64,000 nt of DNA. Origin: Patescibacteria group bacterium. GTDB lineage: Bacteria; Patescibacteriota; Patescibacteriia; Patescibacteriales; UBA12465. Where the stretch lies: positions 7,601 through 71,600 of the forward strand of contig JBAZJR010000001.1 of the NCBI GenBank assembly GCA_041651195.1, read 5' to 3'. The position numbers and the translations under genes were made by a program. Positions 7,088 through 43,587 of this stretch are shown piece by piece. The first letter of the stretch is position 1; each line of letters begins with the position of its first letter. Below the pieces are notes generated by a model. It had not been told where the DNA came from and did not search any database. It worked only from the letters and a program-made list of their open reading frames with translations.

Positions 7088-7158
7088 TCGGGGCGCTGGG
7101 AATTGAACCCAGTCAACATGCTCCCAAAGCATGCGTACTACCGGTATACGACGCCCCG
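7088..7158 (-). tRNA. tRNA-Pro (UGG)
   Basis: Hand-folded cloverleaf: acceptor CGGGGCG/CGCCCCG, anticodon stem CAUGC/GCAUG with loop UUUGGGA, T-arm CUGGG-UUCAAUU-CCCAG. CCA is not encoded. Confidence 0.85.
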
Positions 7159-7222
7159 TGGCAGCCTTTAAAAAAATAAACCCATAAATAATAACCTGGG
7201 TTAATTTTTTATATATATCATG

Positions 7223-7294
7223 TGCCCCGGGTCAGAATCGAACTGACGACACAAGGATTTTCAGTCCTTTGCTCTACCACTGAGCTACCGAGGC
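7223..7294 (-). tRNA. tRNA-Phe (GAA)
   Basis: Acceptor GCCUCGG/CCGGGGC, D-arm GCUCAGUGGUAGAGC, anticodon loop CUGAAAA, T-arm GUCAG-UUCGAUU-CUGAC. Confidence 0.85.
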
Positions 7295-7322
7295 CCGGAA
7301 AATTATATTGTTAAAGTCTATC

Positions 7323-7398
7323 TGGTTGCGGGGGTCGGACTCGAACCGACGACCTCTAGGTTATGGGCCTAGCGAGCTGCCAACTGCTCTACCCCGCT
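7323..7398 (-). tRNA. tRNA-Met (CAU), possibly the initiator
   Basis: Anticodon loop CCCAUAA. It has a 1:72 A-A mismatch and an A11:U24 pair, both initiator-like, but only 2 of the 3 G:C pairs in the anticodon stem. It is the only tRNA here with an encoded CCA. Confidence 0.8.
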
Positions 7399-7412
7399 AT
7401 AATAAGAAACCG

Positions 7413-7486
7413 TGGGCAATGGAGGACTCGAACCTCCGACCTCAACATTATCAGTGTTGCGCTCTAACCAACTGAGCTAATTGCCC
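7413..7486 (-). tRNA. tRNA-Ile (GAU)
   Basis: Acceptor GGGCAAU/AUUGCCC, anticodon stem CAACA/UGUUG with loop CUGAUAA, T-arm GGAGG-UUCGAGU-CCUCC. Confidence 0.85.
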
Positions 7487-20601: not shown

Positions 20602-20675
20602 TGGACCCTAAGGGATTCGAACCCTTGACCCCCTGCTTGCAAAGCAGGTGCTCTGACCAGCTGAGCTAAGGGCCC
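20602..20675 (-). tRNA. tRNA-Ala (UGC)
   Basis: Acceptor GGGCCCU/AGGGUCC with the G3:U70 identity pair, anticodon loop UUUGCAA, T-arm AAGGG-UUCGAAU-CCCUU. Confidence 0.9.
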
Positions 20676-32436: not shown

Positions 32437-33201
32437 CTATTCTTTGCTGATGCTCCAGAGCGTTTCAAACATCAGCCTGTTCATCTCATAAATATCTTTA
32501 TTTTCGATCAGTATGGAGATTATTTTTCCCTTATTGATAACCTGGAAAGATATTTTGCCGTCATAAATCTGGATAGAAGTCTTGAAGGTGGCGGACAGAT
32601 TCTCTAAATAACGGATAGCCGTTATTTTTTCATATTCAGAATTTTGTTCACTCCCTTGATCGGGCCGTTCACCGACACGGATAATTTTTTTCTTTATTCC
32701 GAGCTTCTCTCGTTTTTGTTTATATTCCAGATTGGCTTCTTGAAATTCACCCTCTTCATTAAGGGCTTGTTTATTCAGGAGAAGATAGATTTCCGTTTTG
32801 CTCGATAAAGTGTCTTCTAAAATTTTTCGCAGCCCTTCTTCTCCCTCATAAAATCTCACTCCCGGCTTATTGCTGATCAGGCTATAAGCGGAAATCAGGT
32901 CGGGCAGGGCGTTGATGAATTCCTGTTTATGCTTGATCGCTTCTTTTTCTTTCTGCTCAGCAATTGTCTCTAAATTATAGGGGTGTTCGGCGGCAAAAAT
33001 AGTGATACCCTTAACTTCCTCGGTCTTGGAGACTAAATTGAGCCTAATTAACTCATCCAAGCCTTTATAAGCGACCCCGCGGGGCCGTTTTATTTTTTTA
33101 GCGATATTACTGGCCTTGTCAGGGCCGGAATTCAGCAGGGAATCCAGGATTTCCGCCTGGACCTTGGATAAGCCGAGATTATAAAGAGTTTTTTCGTACA
33201 T
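32437..33201 (-). CDS. TrmB-family transcriptional regulator
   Basis: N-terminal wHTH (LGLSKVQAEILDSLLNSGPDKASNIAKKIKRPRGVAYKGLDELIRLNLV) followed by a TrmB-like C-terminal domain. Confidence 0.75.
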   Translation of the reverse strand: MYEKTLYNLGLSKVQAEILDSLLNSGPDKASNIAKKIKRPRGVAYKGLDELIRLNLVSKTEEVKGITIFAAEHPYNLETIAEQKEKEAIKHKQEFINALPDLISAYSLISNKPGVRFYEGEEGLRKILEDTLSSKTEIYLLLNKQALNEEGEFQEANLEYKQKREKLGIKKKIIRVGERPDQGSEQNSEYEKITAIRYLENLSATFKTSIQIYDGKISFQVINKGKIISILIENKDIYEMNRLMFETLWSISKE

Positions 33202-33441
33202 ATATTTGTTTTTTATTGTTTTAATAGTGGCTAGGGGGGATTCTTCCTGTGGATAACTTTACAAAAATTAAGTTTTATTTTGTTAGTAGTTTAAGGGTCA
33301 CATTAATCCATAGTCATATTATAGCGCATATTAAATATAGTGTCAACTCTTAAAATGACAAAAAAAGAAAATAAATATGCGTATTTAAAGCATTTCTGTC
33401 TATATTTTAATAACATTTGCCAAAAATAGTCTTTTTAAGTC

Positions 33442-33470
33442 TTGACAATTATCTCAGAGCGTGCTAAACT
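33442..33470 (+). promoter_or_regulatory. near-consensus sigma70-type promoter at the head of the island
   Basis: TTGACA (33442-47), a 17-nt spacer ending in TGc (extended -10), then TAAACT (33465-70). The predicted TSS is about 33477. Confidence 0.7.
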
Positions 33471-33584
33471 TAAGTTATCGAAAATGAGAAAGGAAAGAAA
33501 CGGGCAAAACGCAGTACATTACATTCAAATAAAATAATGGAAGGAGAGAGCCATTATCAACTTAGTTTACTACGATCTTTATAT

Positions 33585-33651
33585 AAAGGGGTATTAGGCG
33601 GGTTAAGCTTTCTCATTCTATTAGAAAGTTTTTCCGCTTAGTACCCTTTTT
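33585..33651 (+). terminator. long three-tier hairpin ending in a U-run (attenuator/terminator candidate)
   Basis: Pairings AAAGGG/CCCUUU, GGCGG/CCGCU and AAGCUUUCU/AGAAAGUUU, with U47-U51 at the 3' side. It lies about 110-175 nt after the predicted TSS. Confidence 0.45.
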
Positions 33652-34265
33652 GGTTGGAAGAGAGCGGATAGTCATGGAGAGGAGAGAGATTTAGTCCCTG
33701 CGCTAGCGCCCACAGCCTAGAGCAGCTCTAAATAAGAAGCGCGGCCGATCGGAACTAAAAATATCATTTGGAAACGCCACCCCATGCCGTTTCCCAAAAT
33801 TCCTTCAAGGACGCCGAATAAACTCCCCTTCATAACTATCCGCTTTGAGCGGAACCGAAGCGATTGCGGCACAATTGCCCCAATTATTTAGGGAATAAAT
33901 AAATCAGTTAGATCAGCTTATCGATTTTAGGAGATCAAATGGACACATAAGCTTTAAGAATAAAGCGGAGAGGGTTCATCTCCTGAGATTAATAAAGATT
34001 TAACAGTTTGCTTCCGGGATCAACCCGGGATCAGGCGGGAAGTGAGTCAGAGCCGAGTAGCGTCGCAAACCGCCGCGGAGCCGAGACGATCCTAGTAGCG
34101 CGTGGCCCAGTTATCCTTAACGGGATGAGCAAGCTCCGGGAACGGCACGAACGCCACCGTCTTCTTACGAGGAGATCGGCTGAGCCCCAAGCCTTGAACA
34201 AGCTTAGGCCCAGAAATTTCCTCGGAAAAGTATAATTAGCCGAGAAAAAGTTCTTTGAAACTAAT
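33652..34265 (+). ncRNA. candidate large structured non-coding leader RNA (class unknown)
   Basis: About 600 nt with no credible ORF. It is more GC-rich than the flanks and dense in local hairpins (for example GGAAACG/CGUUUCC at 33770-94 and GGAGA-GGGUUCA-UCUCC at 33967-84). It is co-oriented with the operon. Confidence 0.3.
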
Positions 34266-34289
34266 TTGAAAACAAAAAAGGAGTCCCGC

Positions 34290-34517
34290 GTGAGTAAAGT
34301 AAGCGCGGGAAAGGATATGAGTGATATTCAAATTCAATTGGTAAATGCTGGTCTAACCACCCAGCAAAAAATTGACGAAATCAATCGCCAGAAGGCGATT
34401 GATAAAAATTTTGTCCGGGTTGCGCGAAAAGCAAAACCCGGAGTTTCTCCCAAAATTTGGGAGAAATATGCCCGCTTGAAAAGGCAGGCGTCAAAAGATT
34501 TACAGTTTGTATACTAA
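34290..34517 (+). CDS. small basic protein (75 aa), unknown function
   Basis: The GTG at 34290 lies 6 nt after AAGGAG (34278-83). The ORF track opens at an upstream TTG (34266) that lacks an SD. Confidence 0.55.
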   Translation: MSKVSAGKDMSDIQIQLVNAGLTTQQKIDEINRQKAIDKNFVRVARKAKPGVSPKIWEKYARLKRQASKDLQFVY

Positions 34518-34631: not shown

Positions 34632-34710
34632 AGAGCAGTGTCGTTCAAACATTGCTCTCCCTCCCGGGATGCGTGTTCCGGCTGATGAGTCCGAAAGGAC
34701 GAAAGGGAAG
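34632..34710 (+). ncRNA. hammerhead ribozyme copy 1 (type III) with 5' P0 hairpin
   Basis: P0 AGAGCAGUG/CAUUGCUCU. CCCUC with cleavage predicted after C34663. Stem I CCGGGA-UGCGUG-UUCCGG. Core CUGAUGA. Stem II GUCC-GAAA-GGAC. Then GAAA and GGGA. Confidence 0.9.
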
Positions 34711-34745
34711 TTCTTTGAAATTAAATTCATTAAATAAAATGCGGC

Positions 34746-34766
34746 TCCGACGTATTCGGGCAAGGA
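34746..34766 (+). promoter_or_regulatory. conserved leader hairpin plus SD (copy A)
   Basis: UCCGA-CGUAU-UCGGG hairpin, then cAAGGA, with the ATG 5 nt later. It is preceded by an A-rich tract and GCGGC. Confidence 0.7.
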
Positions 34767-34771
34767 ATAAG

Positions 34772-34990
34772 ATGGAAGAATTATTGAAGCAGCTCGGTTT
34801 TTCTAAAAGTCATAATCAATATGATTATGACAAGCATATAAAAAATAGAATATACATAACAGTTTATCCCAGCGGTGAAGGCTGGGAGGTGGCTGTTAGT
34901 TCTGAAAATTCGGACGGGAGCGCCAATACCATTTTTCTCGGCGCAACCACTGAGAAGAAAATAAGCCTCTTAGTTGAAGCGTTATTCTAA
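34772..34990 (+). CDS. small protein (72 aa), unknown function
   Basis: The ATG at 34772 is correctly spaced from the SD of leader copy A. The longer tracked ORF (from 34652) would read through the ribozyme. Confidence 0.6.
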   Translation: MEELLKQLGFSKSHNQYDYDKHIKNRIYITVYPSGEGWEVAVSSENSDGSANTIFLGATTEKKISLLVEALF

Positions 34991-35579: not shown

Positions 35580-35660
35580 GAGGGATGGCGTCAGTTCAAA
35601 CGTTGTCCTCCCTCCCGAGATGCGTGTCTCGGCTGATGAGTCCGAAAGGACGAAAGGGAA
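35580..35660 (+). ncRNA. hammerhead ribozyme copy 2 (type III) with 5' P0 hairpin
   Basis: P0 AGGGAUGGCG/CGUUGUCCU. CCCUC with cleavage after C35614. Stem I CCGAGA-UGCGUG-UCUCGG, a compensatory G:C to A:U change relative to copies 1, 3 and 4. Canonical core. Confidence 0.9.
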
Positions 35661-35789
35661 GTTCTTTAAAACCAGGCATTAATGGATTTAATTATTTTTT
35701 GAGATGTTTTTATAATTGTGTTCGTTCCGTCCAGATGATTTAAAGACGAATCGGATAATAATTAAATTCATTAAGTAAAAAAATGCGGC

Positions 35790-35810
35790 TCCGACGTATT
35801 CGGGCAAGGA
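35790..35810 (+). promoter_or_regulatory. conserved leader hairpin plus SD (copy B)
   Basis: Identical to copy A (UCCGA-CGUAU-UCGGG-cAAGGA). About 50 nt of upstream sequence (ttaaattcattaa.taaaa..atgcggc) is also shared with copy A. Confidence 0.7.
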
Positions 35811-35816
35811 TGAAAG

Positions 35817-37538
35817 TTGAAAAGGATTATAGTTTGCGGGCCACCCCATAGTGGAAAATCAGTGTTTTTAGCGAATCTGATGCGGCTGCTACCGCCAGAT
35901 TCGTTTTATTTAGCCTTCGCCGCTCCGGACGGCGAATGGCATTGGAGTAATTTCGGTGACCAGGATCTCGTATCCGTAGTTCGCCAGAAAGGAAAGTTCT
36001 CCGAGGATTTCGTTTCCTCAATGGAGAACGCCATTCGGAACAACCAGCAGCCGCTCGTGTTGGTTGACACCGGGGGAGTAATGTCCCCGGAAAACGGGCG
36101 GATATTTGATGTTTGCGAAGGGTGCATCATCCTCGCAAACAGCGAGAAAAGTAATGACGCAATTCCTGCCTGGCGTGAATTTGCCGCTAGCCATAGCGTG
36201 CAGGTTCTGGCCGAAATCGTTAGTGACCTTCATGGCACTAATGAACTCATCTCGTCGGGAGATGGGGATGGCGGGAAAATTATCGGTCGGATTGCCGGCC
36301 TTGAGCGCGGGCAGACAATTAATTCGCCCGTGCTGGAGGCGGTGGCAAACCGCCTGCGGGAAGTTATCCGGAGCAATTCGGAACTGACCGAAGGCGAGCT
36401 TCTTTGTAATGTGAACGGCGCCACTCTCGTGGACCGTATCGGCATTACCGAAAAGAATGACCCTTTCCTGGGGGTCAGGCCGATTCATCTCCAGGATGCC
36501 CTGCGTCTGACTAGTGCAGTGGCAAAATTAGAGACTGTGCGCATTTGGAATGTGCGCGCAGCTATCCTGGCCTGTGCTATGGCGAGCAGGTTCTCTGGCA
36601 ACATTGAACTATATGATGTTGCTAAGGGATATTTTCGTATCCCGGATGCGGTTCCGCAAGGCGCAGGGTGCAAGGATTGCGGTGTCGAATGGGAAGTGTT
36701 AGAGCTCCCCGAATTTACACTGGTTAGATTCCGTCCAACGCGGTTTATTACCGAGCGCGATTTGCCTAATATTTATCCTCCGGTAGTTGACACCACCAAA
36801 CCGGTCGTGATTGCTCACGACGGACCGCCGATGTGGCTTGATGCCACGGTAGTTCGTGCTTATTGGCGCTCGGGCGTGCCATACGTGGCTATGCTTTGGC
36901 CCGTGGAAAGTGCCCGCTCCCAAAAGCATCTTGGCGGGAAAAAATGGGATAAGGTATACCCGTTTGCTGGACCGGCCGTGGTAGTTGCTGGATCGGCAGA
37001 GAAAATCGGAGACATTATTCCAGTCTCCTTTGACCTCTTGAAATGGGACGCGCCGGTTGTTGGAAAATTAGCGTCTGGGCAAATAGTGATTGATCGCAAG
37101 GACAGCCATGTCCAAGGCCATTCCGAAGTCCTTCCTCTTCTTGTGGAAGCGCTTGCAAAGATCCATGCTATGGACCGTAAGAGTTTCTGTGAAGAGATAA
37201 GATTTTGTCGTACCATAGGCGAAACAATCTGCATTAATACAACTGACGCTGATGAAATTATTTATGCTCAACGCCCAAATCGCCGCGGGTTGACGCGGTT
37301 TGTCAAAAATCGTCAGCCCGAAGCAACCAGTTCAGTGGTTGCTTGCTTCATGAAAAATGATGGTATGGGAGGAGCCTATCTTCTCACAACCGCATTTATT
37401 GGGAGTCGCGCTCCTGCCGAGCCGTGGGACAAGCAGTGGGCGACCGAGGAATCGGCTACTTTCTGGAATACCCATGCTTTGATTTTTGAGAAATCAGAGA
37501 TCGTTGATGGGACTGAAACTGATAAGTGCCCATGGTAA
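35817..37538 (+). CDS. P-loop NTPase fused to a large C-terminal region with possible Csx3-like segments
   Basis: The TTG start lies 6 nt after the leader SD. Walker A is CGPPHSGKS and Walker B-like is LVLVDTGG. Segments RIWNVRAAILACAMA...ELYDVAKGYFRI and HDGPPMWLDATVV...VAMLWP...GPAVVVAGS are present. Confidence 0.7.
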   Translation: MKRIIVCGPPHSGKSVFLANLMRLLPPDSFYLAFAAPDGEWHWSNFGDQDLVSVVRQKGKFSEDFVSSMENAIRNNQQPLVLVDTGGVMSPENGRIFDVCEGCIILANSEKSNDAIPAWREFAASHSVQVLAEIVSDLHGTNELISSGDGDGGKIIGRIAGLERGQTINSPVLEAVANRLREVIRSNSELTEGELLCNVNGATLVDRIGITEKNDPFLGVRPIHLQDALRLTSAVAKLETVRIWNVRAAILACAMASRFSGNIELYDVAKGYFRIPDAVPQGAGCKDCGVEWEVLELPEFTLVRFRPTRFITERDLPNIYPPVVDTTKPVVIAHDGPPMWLDATVVRAYWRSGVPYVAMLWPVESARSQKHLGGKKWDKVYPFAGPAVVVAGSAEKIGDIIPVSFDLLKWDAPVVGKLASGQIVIDRKDSHVQGHSEVLPLLVEALAKIHAMDRKSFCEEIRFCRTIGETICINTTDADEIIYAQRPNRRGLTRFVKNRQPEATSSVVACFMKNDGMGGAYLLTTAFIGSRAPAEPWDKQWATEESATFWNTHALIFEKSEIVDGTETDKCPW

Positions 37539-37579
37539 TAATCAGTATAAACCAATAGATAAATCATAAAAACCGCGGC

Positions 37580-37604
37580 CCCGACGGTCAAATCGGGCAA
37601 GGAG
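37580..37604 (+). promoter_or_regulatory. conserved leader hairpin plus SD (copy C)
   Basis: CCCGA-CGGUCAAA-UCGGG, then cAAGGAG, with the ATG 5 nt later. It is preceded by aaaaaCCGCGGC. Confidence 0.65.
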
Positions 37605-37609
37605 AATTA

Positions 37610-38005
37610 ATGATGAAAACTACAAAATTTTTTGCAAGTTTAGGTGTTGTCCCTGGTTATGGCCACGATAACGCGACTGACGCCAGTGCGGTTGATATTG
37701 CTGGCAACGCCTGGCAAGCAGCTGCTGCAGGCGTGTTCGCTGAACAAAAAGTTTACGTCGGGGCGATAATTACGCCAGCCCGTACGGTTTACCATAAAGA
37801 CTGGGGTTGCCCAGTCGGTGGCGAATTAACGGTTTTGATTACTGGGGAACGCAACCCCCAGTATACGGCGGAAGAAAACTTCAAGACGGCCGTAGTTGAA
37901 ACTTTAAAAAGGACTGCTCAAGCGTTGAAGCAGTCTACCACGCAGGTAACTTTTCAGGAAGTCGATATGGAATATCTTGACTTTCGTGAAAAGAAGCCTG
38001 AATAA
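37610..38005 (+). CDS. hypothetical protein (131 aa)
   Basis: Good SD and spacing. No recognisable motif. Confidence 0.6.
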   Translation: MMKTTKFFASLGVVPGYGHDNATDASAVDIAGNAWQAAAAGVFAEQKVYVGAIITPARTVYHKDWGCPVGGELTVLITGERNPQYTAEENFKTAVVETLKRTAQALKQSTTQVTFQEVDMEYLDFREKKPE

Positions 38006-38064
38006 AGTTGCGGATCCTCTAGTCCACGGAGGAATTGGCTAAGCCAGTGGAAAGTTCATGAGAC

Positions 38065-38144
38065 AGAGCAATGATAGTTCAAGCATTGCTCTCCCTCCCG
38101 GGATGCGTGTCCCGGCTGATGAGTCCGAAAGGACGAAAGGGAAG
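38065..38144 (+). ncRNA. hammerhead ribozyme copy 3 (type III) with 5' P0 hairpin
   Basis: P0 AGAGCAAUG/CAUUGCUCU, a perfect 9 bp. CCCUC with cleavage after C38097. Stem I CCGGGA-UGCGUG-UCCCGG. Canonical core and GAAA-capped stem II. Confidence 0.9.
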
Positions 38145-38164
38145 AACATTAAAAACTTAATAGG

Positions 38165-42657: not shown

Positions 42658-42687
42658 AACAAATTAAACCAATAAAAAAATCGCGGC

Positions 42688-42710
42688 CCCGACGTATTCG
42701 GGCAAGGGGA
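42688..42710 (+). promoter_or_regulatory. conserved leader hairpin plus SD (copy D)
   Basis: CCCGA-CGUAU-UCGGG, then cAAGGGGA, with the ATG 4 nt later. It is preceded by aaaaaaaUCGCGGC. Confidence 0.7.
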
Positions 42711-42714
42711 AATA

Positions 42715-43095
42715 ATGAAAAAAATAGTAATTTTTTCTTTACTGTTATTGCTGTTGCCGGCCTGCCGGGATAGCCAAGTTGACTTAGAAAAATCTGGCAT
42801 CAAAATTGGCGGAATAGTAAAGTCGGAATACGGAAATATAGCTATAACCGACATTAGTAGTCGCGCGGAAACGGCAGATTTTTCCGTATTTCGATTGACA
42901 GGGATTCTGTATGTTGACTCCATCGTGGCTTATACATCGTGGAGCTCAAGATACTTCAATGGCCCCGCCTGGCATGTCCTAAACAATGGACGCAGCTACT
43001 TTATCAGGGGTGACAACGGGAATTATTCATATTACGATATGGATCTCGATTATGCGAGATTTTATACAATAATTTCTGAGGTTCGCCAGAACTAA
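42715..43095 (+). CDS. putative lipoprotein (126 aa)
   Basis: Signal peptide with a lipobox: MKKIVIFSLLLLLLPAC. Confidence 0.65.
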   Translation: MKKIVIFSLLLLLLPACRDSQVDLEKSGIKIGGIVKSEYGNIAITDISSRAETADFSVFRLTGILYVDSIVAYTSWSSRYFNGPAWHVLNNGRSYFIRGDNGNYSYYDMDLDYARFYTIISEVRQN

Positions 43096-43120: not shown

Positions 43121-43200
43121 AGGGTGGCACTCGTTCTATTGCCGCCCTACCCTCCCGGGATGCGTGTCCCGGCTGATGAGTCCGAAAGGACGAAAGGGTA
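43121..43200 (+). ncRNA. hammerhead ribozyme copy 4 (type III) with 5' P0 hairpin
   Basis: P0 AGGGUGGCA/UGCCGCCCU. ACCCUC with cleavage after C43154. Stem I CCGGGA-UGCGUG-UCCCGG. Canonical core. The outermost stem III pair is flipped to A:U (ACCCU/AGGGU), where the other copies have U:A. Confidence 0.9.
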
Positions 43201-43245
43201 ATCTACTAAAAATTATATCAACGCAATAAAAAAAATAAAACCGTG

Positions 43246-43480: not shown

Positions 43481-43488
43481 TGTTCAAG

Positions 43489-43587
43489 AGGGATGACGTC
43501 AGTTCAAACGTTGTCCTCCCTCTCAGGATTATATCCTGACTGATGAGTCCTCGTTTTGCCACTAGGGCGGACAAAGGACGAAAGGGA
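43489..43587 (+). ncRNA. hammerhead ribozyme copy 5 (divergent type III)
   Basis: P0 AGGGAUGACG/CGUUGUCCU. CCCUC with cleavage after C43522. Stem I is fully replaced but still paired (UCAGGA-UUAUA-UCCUGA). Core CUGAUGA. Stem II GUCC...GGAC carries a 25-nt insertion. Then GAAA-GGGA. Confidence 0.85.

Follow-up and report, generated by a model that had tools for sequence, protein, structure and literature searches.

Bacterial ribosomal RNA (rRNA) operons have a strong promoter that drives a long untranslated RNA with an extensive fold; a single-stranded boxA motif follows the leader hairpin and is repeated in the spacers, where the RNA is processed, under an antitermination system comprising boxB-boxA-boxC, NusA/B/E/G and SuhB. 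A similar layout was found in a 64,000-nt stretch of the Patescibacteria group bacterium contig JBAZJR010000001.1 (hereafter, the window, to which coordinates refer unless a locus is named), where positions 33477–34240 of the plus strand encode a structured untranslated leader RNA of ~765 nt, here called A-type, at the head of a gene island. The differences from rRNA operons are that the cargo is protein-coding and variable, that predicted hammerhead ribozymes replace RNase III, and that the folded RNA is non-ribosomal and lies upstream of the first box; a role for Nus factors is suggested by analogy. We regard this leader as very probably a new conserved structured RNA, and tentatively, with a probability of roughly 0.4, as the untranslated head of an rrn-like, antiterminated and ribozyme-processed operon.

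Several other described systems share part of this arrangement. The large RNAs OLE, ROOL, GOLLD, HEARO and raiA also span hundreds of nucleotides with many covarying helices and conserved loops, have restricted phylogenetic ranges and are often co-transcribed with their neighbours. The present RNA differs from them in showing no sequence or structure match (Rfam 15), in its host phylum, in its fixed place between a regulator gene and variable cassettes, and in its modularity, with a 57-nt hairpin alone being shared across lineages. Lambda nut, HK022 put and EAR are likewise cis-acting leader elements of long, horizontally variable operons, and the hairpin-plus-box arrangement at our locus is nut-like; however, those elements measure 40–120 nt rather than ~765 nt, and no N-, Q- or LoaP-like partner was identified here. 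CopA/CopT, RNAI/RNAII and phi29 pRNA provide precedents for Watson-Crick complementarity of 6–8 nt between the apical loops of stable hairpins, whereas here one leader loop would face several targets along its own transcript in a predicted contact, with neither an inhibition mechanism nor a Rom-like protein evident. Finally, integron arrays also combine a fixed platform (regulator, promoter and non-coding head) with promoter-less variable cassettes and conserved structured repeats between them, but at this locus no integrase lies beside the platform, hammerhead modules at the RNA level stand in place of attC recombination sites, and cassette mobility is putative.

The structured leader RNA and its relatives

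A sequence-only reading of the window had proposed a near-consensus promoter followed by ~0.8 kb without a credible open reading frame (ORF), that is, a candidate large structured RNA heading the island. The promoter (33442–33470, plus strand; TTGACA, 17 nt, TG-c-TAAACT with an extended -10) is present as described and is kept in every homologue (TTGACA-17-TGnTAnACT), including the extended -10 TG in L025, L003 and L018; eye inspection showed it in the related loci as well. It is not the best promoter match in the window, as had been stated, since a minus-strand promoter at 33346..33318 matches at 12/12 positions. The 5′ end of the leader was placed from the plus-strand promoter, and its 3′ limit is where conservation ends. 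Between 33470 and 34290, the ORF listing holds only ORFs of ≤75 amino acids (aa), none of the leader ORFs has a Pfam or PHROG match, and the gene caller applied to the public version of the contig places the first gene at 34290–34517, in line with the proposed lack of a credible ORF. The ORF at 34008–34235, which had been taken for noise, is indeed broken in every homologue: the corresponding stretches measure 223–241 nt, differ in length by numbers not divisible by three, and stay free of stops for at most 25–62 aa. Another ORF, at 33537, ends after 6 codons in L003. Overall, the homologues show conserved blocks interleaved with variable stretches, with indels that are not multiples of three and no conserved frame, contrary to what a protein-coding sequence would present. 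The reported enrichment in GC and abundance of local hairpins were both borne out, with GC fractions of 0.47–0.60 within the region against 0.26–0.39 in the flanks, and with minimum free energies corresponding to z = -6.4 (plus strand) and z = -2.3 (minus strand) relative to shuffled sequences.

Homologues and covariation, which the same reading had named among its checks, were obtained from loci (given L numbers) collected via two neighbouring proteins, namely a 573-aa AAA-Csx3 protein and the divergent TrmB-like regulator. Eight further distinct A-type homologues were retrieved from contigs of Patescibacteria, which are tiny and uncultured (six near full-length, one 5′-only and one internal-deletion variant), with nhmmer E-values of 1e-38 to 1e-209. 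Relatives of AAA-Csx3 led to leader homologues in four loci: L025 (E = 1e-48 using a single sequence as the query), L003, L018, which has only the 5′ 600 nt and lacks the 3′ domain, and L024, a natural 290-nt deletion variant that retains leader positions 1–204 and 718–793. Relatives of the TrmB-like protein led to four more distinct A-type copies (E = 1e-38 to 1e-157), of which the L035 copy is full-length, the L036/37 copy has a rearranged 5′ half, and the L031/32 and L033/34 copies each lack ~100 nt of the central domain. An alignment of seven sequences (A7), made using MAFFT with consensus pairs from RNAalifold, contained 96 predicted pairs with 91.8% of the cells paired and double changes in 42 pairs. 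These values were reached by none of 500 column shuffles, and slid controls, in which the 3′ partners were moved by 1–3 columns, gave 39–48% paired cells and 6–15 double-change pairs; the compensatory changes therefore go beyond the controls, as is expected of a structured non-coding RNA. The leader has been kept across contigs whose neighbouring TrmB proteins share only 46–69% identity. The proposal of a large structured RNA at the head of the island is thus supported by strong conservation and covariation, together with the lack of a conserved frame and of an Rfam family.

Regarding known families, a scan using Rfam 15 at gathering thresholds returned only transfer RNAs (tRNAs) in the window, and even at E-values up to 10 no plus-strand match fell inside 33470–34290; nothing overlapped the related RNAs in L007, L012, L019, L020 and L027. 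The sequence-only reading had matched the region to no RNA class, and the scan with all models likewise finds none: OLE, ROOL, GOLLD, HEARO, raiA, RNase P, tmRNA, 6S, group I/II introns and riboswitches all fail to reach the gathering score in the leader. Blastn against 50,697 phage records returned no match, and scans of viral contigs using the hammerhead core and leader motifs returned 0 or 1 match, the single one (L030) being non-homologous. Two degenerate patterns of the 3′ domain matched viral contigs 13 and >120 times, but none of the 93 fetched loci passed a covariance model of this domain (R1), and these matches are therefore attributed to chance. The RNA appears to be chromosomal rather than viral. 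The literature search returned nothing relevant on hammerheads or structured RNAs in Patescibacteria/Parcubacteria, nor on Csx3 with hammerheads. As far as we could find, the RNA belongs to no known family, and a leader RNA combined with hammerhead spacers and boxA-like boxes is undescribed.

The structural elements of the A-type RNA (all on the plus strand) are distributed over its whole length. Its ends are joined by a closing helix between UGAGA (33485–33489) and UCUUA (34163–34167), which is almost invariant, paired in 7/7 sequences and retained on both strands in the L024 deletion variant. Hairpin H1 (33534–33557) bears an invariant, Shine-Dalgarno (SD)-like purine loop of 10 nt, AAGGAGAGAG, which sits on other stems in L019 (GGAAAG/CUUUCC) and L012. 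The next domain (33655–33846) holds GGAGAGGAGAGAG, a CACCCCAUGCCG hairpin and CUCCCCUUCAU, and is closed by a long-range helix of ~22–25 bp (33655–33686 with 33822–33846). This helix, which MAFFT misaligned in A7, is kept with compensatory changes in L018, L025, L003 and L035, with duplex energies of -26 to -35 kcal/mol. The 10-bp pairing of 33663–72 with 33835–44, earlier noted as possible and not statistically compelling by itself, is real and forms part of it. L031/L033 have lost the interior of the domain, and L024 all of it. A long hairpin (33919–33994; AGGAGA:UCUCCU and UGGAC:GUUCA) follows, with double changes in 8 of its 20 pairs. It includes a mini-ORF (33928–33951) consisting of a strong SD sequence, AGGAGAU, and then AUG GAC ACA UAA, and a start codon with a stop 2–4 codons on recurs in L025, L035, L031 and L036; since the bases of the mini-ORF form covarying pairs, its translation may be incidental. 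In the multi-helix domain (34041–34149), 20 of the 25 pairs show double changes, and the hairpin at 34058–34075 carries the conserved loop UCGCAAAC. The most conserved part of the RNA is the 57-nt 3′ hairpin domain (34168–34224), which consists of P1 (GAGGAG/UUCCUC), an internal loop (AUCGG / AAAU), and then P2 and P3, with the apical loop CUUGAACAA at 34193–34201. The consensus motifs of the K-turn and the hairpin ribozyme do not fit the AUCGG/AAAU internal loop.

Shorter RNAs of 320–590 nt (B-type) lie upstream of AAA-Csx3 operons in distant lineages (L027, L029, L012, L020, L007 and L019). They share with the A-type the kind of promoter, purine-rich GAGGAGAGAG motifs and, most notably, the 3′ hairpin domain. 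An alignment of this domain from both RNA types (A4) was 89.5% paired, with double changes in 13 of 19 pairs, which none of 500 shuffles reached. Model R1, built from this alignment, matched L012, L020, L007, L027 (twice), L029 and L031–L037; it recovered every copy of the 3′ domain, always on the coding strand and upstream of the operon. A larger homologous core was sought across lineages using a second model (R2, domain II plus the 3′ domain), which found nothing but the 3′ hairpin in the B-type loci; the 57-nt hairpin is thus the shared core, and the remainder is lineage-specific. L009 represents a third variant of the RNA. In L027 (1640–2730), an AAA-Csx3 operon, which ends in a large serine recombinase gene, is preceded by two tandem B-type units of ~290 nt and three promoters of the TTGACA-17-TATAAT type, and in L018 (1311–1604, minus strand) an ORF for a GIY-YIG-type nuclease is inserted between the leader RNA and the AAA-Csx3 gene.

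Hammerhead spacers, repeated boxes and complementary loops

Between the cassettes of every A-type locus stand a hairpin (P0), a type III hammerhead and a box resembling AAGUUCUUUGAAA. The stem of P0 covaries and its loop reads GUUCAA(A/G); some P0 hairpins occur without a hammerhead. Module 1 of the window (34632–34720, plus strand, as are the following) consists of P0 at 34632–34658 (loop UCGUUCAAA), a hammerhead at 34656–34710 and a box at 34708–34720. Modules 2 (35580–35671) and 3 (38063–38154) also contain a P0 with a GUUCAA loop, a hammerhead and a box, degenerate in module 3. The hairpin preceding hammerhead 4 (43134–43211) lacks GUUCAA, and a P0 with a GUUCAA loop and a fifth hammerhead-like core are located at the far end of the island (43482–43570). 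The Rfam model Hammerhead_3 gave 39.5 bits (E = 4e-6) for module 1, and all the window hammerheads score below the gathering threshold of 48.5 (39.5 and 23.8 bits), so that standard annotation misses them. In the RF00008 alignment, they display the CUGAUGA and GAAA cores and the three stems of the type III class, and we regard these intergenic elements as active-looking type III hammerhead ribozymes that are predicted to self-cleave, in module 1 after C34663. The same P0-hammerhead-box arrangement was found in L003, L024, L025, L031, L035, L036 and L009. An AAGUUCA motif precedes the window hammerheads. Pairing of the purine tracts with the pyrimidine-rich hammerhead substrate strand was also considered and rejected, as the two do not track in L003.

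The boxA-like box AAGUUCUUUGAAA stands directly after the leader (34248–34260, plus strand), and its copies follow the hammerheads and the 3′ domain of the relatives. The 13-mer at this position, AAGTTCTTTGAAA, had been reported to recur after hammerheads 1 and 2, and we find it identical at 34708–20 and with one mismatch at 35659–71. The box is also present after hammerheads in L003, L009, L024, L025, L031, L035 and L036, reads ACUUUGACAAU after the 3′ hairpin of B-type RNAs, and ends both units of L009. In Escherichia coli, boxA of the rrn operons reads UGCUCUUUAACAA (also given as GCUCUUUAACAA) and is the NusB-NusE site. In a comparison across phyla, the box variant GUUCUUUAAAA agrees with E. 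coli GCUCUUUAACAA at 9/11 positions, and GUUCUUU(G/A)AAA agrees with it at 8–9 of 11–12 positions. The window sequence GUUCUUUGAAACUAAU is nearly identical to GTTCTTTGAAAACTGAAT, a conserved motif of the Mollicutes 16S-23S spacer that is used as a polymerase chain reaction primer. The boxA consensus drifts between phyla, and boxA is also used outside rRNA operons, on long non-coding CRISPR transcripts (PMC7665894). The placement of the box is boxA-like as well, after a promoter-proximal leader hairpin and repeated in the spacers; neither the window nor any of the collected loci contains an rRNA operon. From these resemblances, we infer that the 13-nt box may correspond to boxA, the NusB/NusE antitermination site. 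A reading of the box as a sigma-70 promoter was discarded: TTGAAA at 34255–60 and 34715–20 lacks a properly spaced -10 partner, which only the L027 copy has, and the box is thus not a promoter.

The hairpin at 34189–34205 presents UUGAAC, which is complementary to the GUUCAA loops of P0. This hairpin, already pointed out in the sequence-only reading, carries the loop CUUGAACAA, which six other A-type homologues keep unchanged. Eight A-type RNAs still have their 3′ domain; seven of them share CCUUGAACAAG without variation, and L024 has CCUUGAACAGG, with the apical loop form CUUGAACAG. On the target side, GUUCAA occurs in the P0 loops of 4/5 window hammerheads and, on covarying P0 stems, in every A-type locus (as GUUUAA in L024). 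The complementarity between the apical and P0 loops spans 6–8 nt, and the GUUUAA loops of L024 can still pair by wobble. Complements of the loop, counted as 6-mers, are several-fold denser in intergenic than in coding sequences in most loci. Apical loops of the B-type read CUAAACCA(C/G) or similar. The L027 loop is CUAAACCAG, and ACTGGTTTAG, CTGGTTTA and ACTGGTTT occur in three successive intergenic regions, comprising one exact 10-nt complement in the first region and two 8-nt complements, where ~0.05 ten-mer matches are expected over the entire locus. Loop matches of 7–8 nt were also found in the spacers of L012, L019 and L007. Co-variation of loop and target across lineages is suggested by these data, albeit thinly. 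The kissing interaction, formerly deemed conceivable, gains support as a predicted contact from the near-invariant A-type loops and the 10-nt complement of L027; we consider that the leader apical loop probably docks on the P0 hairpins.

A fixed platform with variable cargo

Upstream of the leader, a gene for a TrmB-like winged-helix regulator (32437–33201, minus strand; Pfam TrmB, E = 5e-9) is oriented divergently from the RNA. Of the 13 RNA loci with enough sequence, 11 have a TrmB homologue upstream and on the other strand, and this gene is the sole constant neighbour; the RNA is thus linked to this gene and not to the genes of the island. The perfect 12/12 sigma-70-type promoter mentioned above (33318–33346, minus strand) is that of the TrmB-like gene and lies in a TGTCA..TGACA inverted repeat (33318–33360). 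Repeats of the TTGTCA-N8-12-TGACAA type occur upstream of the RNA promoter in L009 (895–925), L012, L020 and L029. The inverted repeat, located between the TrmB-like gene and the RNA promoter, may be the operator of the regulator. The half-site of this operator candidate resembles both the -35 hexamer and the 13-nt box.

Downstream of the leader, the gene content differs between genomes. L031, L033, L035 and L036 share the flanking housekeeping genes with the window, and their cargo is entirely different; elsewhere, the window carries genes of the core chromosome (FtsK, Mur ligase, rpoB and rpoC). The downstream genes of L031, L033, L035, L036, L024 and the window are unrelated and so do not form the single gene family expected downstream of a riboswitch. 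Given the constant TrmB neighbour and the differing downstream genes, the RNA heads a variable cassette region and not a particular gene, and together with the regulator it is the fixed platform of that region.

The first gene of the operon in the window (34290–34517, plus strand) encodes 75 aa from GTG, or 66 aa from ATG at 34317; it has a diverged counterpart in L003, and the L035 RNA is likewise followed by a 75-aa gene. The gap between the RNA and the first gene measures 50–170 nt and contains neither a terminator nor a recognisable processing site. Besides two small ORFs, the cargo comprises a homologue of B116/Csx16-like ring nucleases, AAA-Csx3, a protein of the Mvol_0529 family, a MoxR/RavA-like ATPase, a ViaA-like VWA protein and an unknown protein. 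The ring-nuclease homologue, AAA-Csx3 (PADLOC C3a67, E = 4e-40) and the Mvol_0529-family protein are type III CRISPR accessory proteins encoded in the segment 35174–38005; there are no cas genes or CRISPR array within the 64-kb window. A pre-start cassette, GCGGCUCCGACGUAUUCGGGCAAGGA...AUG, with a small hairpin and an SD sequence, precedes four different island genes (34739–34775, 35783–35819, 37569–37612 and 42677–42717) and looks like a portable translation-initiation unit. The idea that the VWA protein and the leader might correspond to Ro60 and a Y RNA, respectively, was dropped, since a PDB sequence search returned only coiled-coil matches and no TROVE domain. A match to drum RNA (RF02958) at 34370–34480 (31.3 bits, E = 0.004, against a gathering score of 43) lies inside ORF 34290–34517 and was judged to be due to chance given the protein counterpart of this ORF in L003. 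The only gathering-level Rfam matches of the window are tRNA genes, four clustered and one nearby at 7088–7486 and a further one at 20602–20675 (minus strand).

Interpretation and alternatives

The interpretation we favour, an rrn-like, antiterminated and ribozyme-processed operon, may be outlined as follows. Transcription from the strong conserved promoter would run without a terminator from the RNA into the genome-specific gene set, with the leader acting as the untranslated first 'cistron' of an operon arranged like an rRNA operon. The boxA-like AAGUUCUUUGAAA directly after the leader 3′ hairpin would serve as a NusB/NusE loading site, rendering RNA polymerase termination-resistant across a long, foreign and poorly translated sequence. 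Each spacer would supply a P0 hairpin, a self-cleaving hammerhead and a new box; this renewal would be needed because cleavage would cut the RNA that tethers the Nus complex, bound at the box, to the polymerase. The apical loop CUUGAACAA would pair with the GUUCAA loops of P0, and this docking would link the leader to each spacer or processed 3′ end and thereby control the cleavage, stability or expression of the cassettes.

Several points weigh against this interpretation. The transcription start, the 3′ end and co-transcription were all deduced from the DNA, as were the identity of boxA and the kissing contact with its consequence. The boxA assignment depends on a cross-phylum resemblance, and the box also resembles the -35 hexamer (TTGACA/TTGAAA) and the palindrome half-site upstream of the RNA promoter. 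The model gives no reason for 0.8 kb of conserved structure, and L024 lacks ~500 nt of the middle of the RNA; together with the ~100-nt deletions in L031/L033, this indicates that much of the structure is dispensable in some genomes. Regarding the loops, the A-type match consists of two near-invariant sequences and is not true covariation, L029 has no loop complement, L020 shows no enrichment, and among the B-type loci only the L027 match is statistically notable.

The strongest competing explanation, which we nevertheless hold to be rather unlikely, is that the leader is a stand-alone, trans-acting structured RNA, such as a ribonucleoprotein component or scaffold of the OLE, ROOL or GOLLD type, which is cut from the messenger RNA near the box and is unrelated to cassette expression, its position at the head of the island being a convenience of transcription. 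In its size, its several domains and its conserved loops, the leader is like a typical RNA of this kind, it accompanies the TrmB-like gene and no cargo gene, and L027 contains two tandem units, each with its own promoter. On the other hand, no terminator or recognisable processing site precedes the first gene, the 3′ hairpin and box directly precede that gene in every locus, and it would have to be by coincidence that the loop complements spacers within the same operon. We assign still less weight to a sensing riboregulator, that is, a giant 5′ untranslated region that refolds upon ligand binding, temperature change, protein binding or translation of the mini-ORF, and switches read-through or translation of the first gene alongside the TrmB-like repressor. 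The 5′ untranslated position and the conserved mini-ORF (SD, AUG and 2–4 codons) would suit this explanation, as would the SD-like purine tracts, which are alternately looped out (H1) or paired to UCUCCU (33919–33994). However, the genes to be controlled are unrelated between genomes, unlike those of riboswitches, no conserved expression platform (a terminator or an SD-sequestering helix at the first gene) was found, covarying pairs fully account for the bases of the mini-ORF, and the RNA is several-fold above the size of any known sensor RNA.

A 5′ stabiliser resembling Bacillus STAB-SD is improbable. In this case, the fold and exposed SD-like tracts would bind the 30S subunit and block 5′ exonucleases, protecting the long transcript, with the downstream pieces protected by the hammerhead folds. 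In its favour are five purine-rich motifs resembling SD sequences, the invariance of the AAGGAGAGAG loop, and the same position of the leader 3′ hairpin and the hammerheads relative to the box; yet known stabilisers are short and would not require 42 covarying pairs over 0.8 kb, and the purine tracts are for the most part engaged in base pairs instead of being exposed. Although L024 and L031/L033, with their internal deletions, demonstrate that the RNA can lose parts, it is barely credible that the region encodes no functional RNA and is instead a degenerate gene, the scar of a mobile element or a GC-rich spacer arisen by chance, in view of the conservation despite 46–69% identity of the neighbouring TrmB proteins, the compensatory changes far above the shuffled and slid controls, the long-range helix kept with compensatory changes, and the conserved promoter without a conserved frame.

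Beyond the rrn-like operon, a more far-reaching and unlikely extension would make this new class of large RNA the hub of a gene-cassette expression system, in which boxA antitermination and hammerhead cutting would yield messages tethered by their loops to the hub RNA. On this extension, which we equally regard as doubtful, a regulator and a structured RNA of 0.35–0.85 kb would head arrays of swappable genes, forming an RNA-based counterpart of the integron platform. To our knowledge, large ornate bacterial RNAs are rare, each one found has opened a new line of work, and the non-coding RNA repertoire of the candidate phyla radiation is almost unexplored. The locus brings together a large covarying leader RNA, arrays of active-looking hammerheads as operon spacers and a boxA-like signal renewed after each cleavage site, a combination that, as far as we know, is not on record. 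If the proposed operon is correct, the system would offer a compact and testable case of RNA-RNA docking, bacterial hammerheads would gain a clear physiological role in producing monocistronic messages from cassette arrays, and the locus would illustrate how a tiny bacterial genome expresses its variable accessory genes, in this case genes for ring nucleases and type III CRISPR accessory functions in a locus that lacks neighbouring CRISPR-Cas genes.

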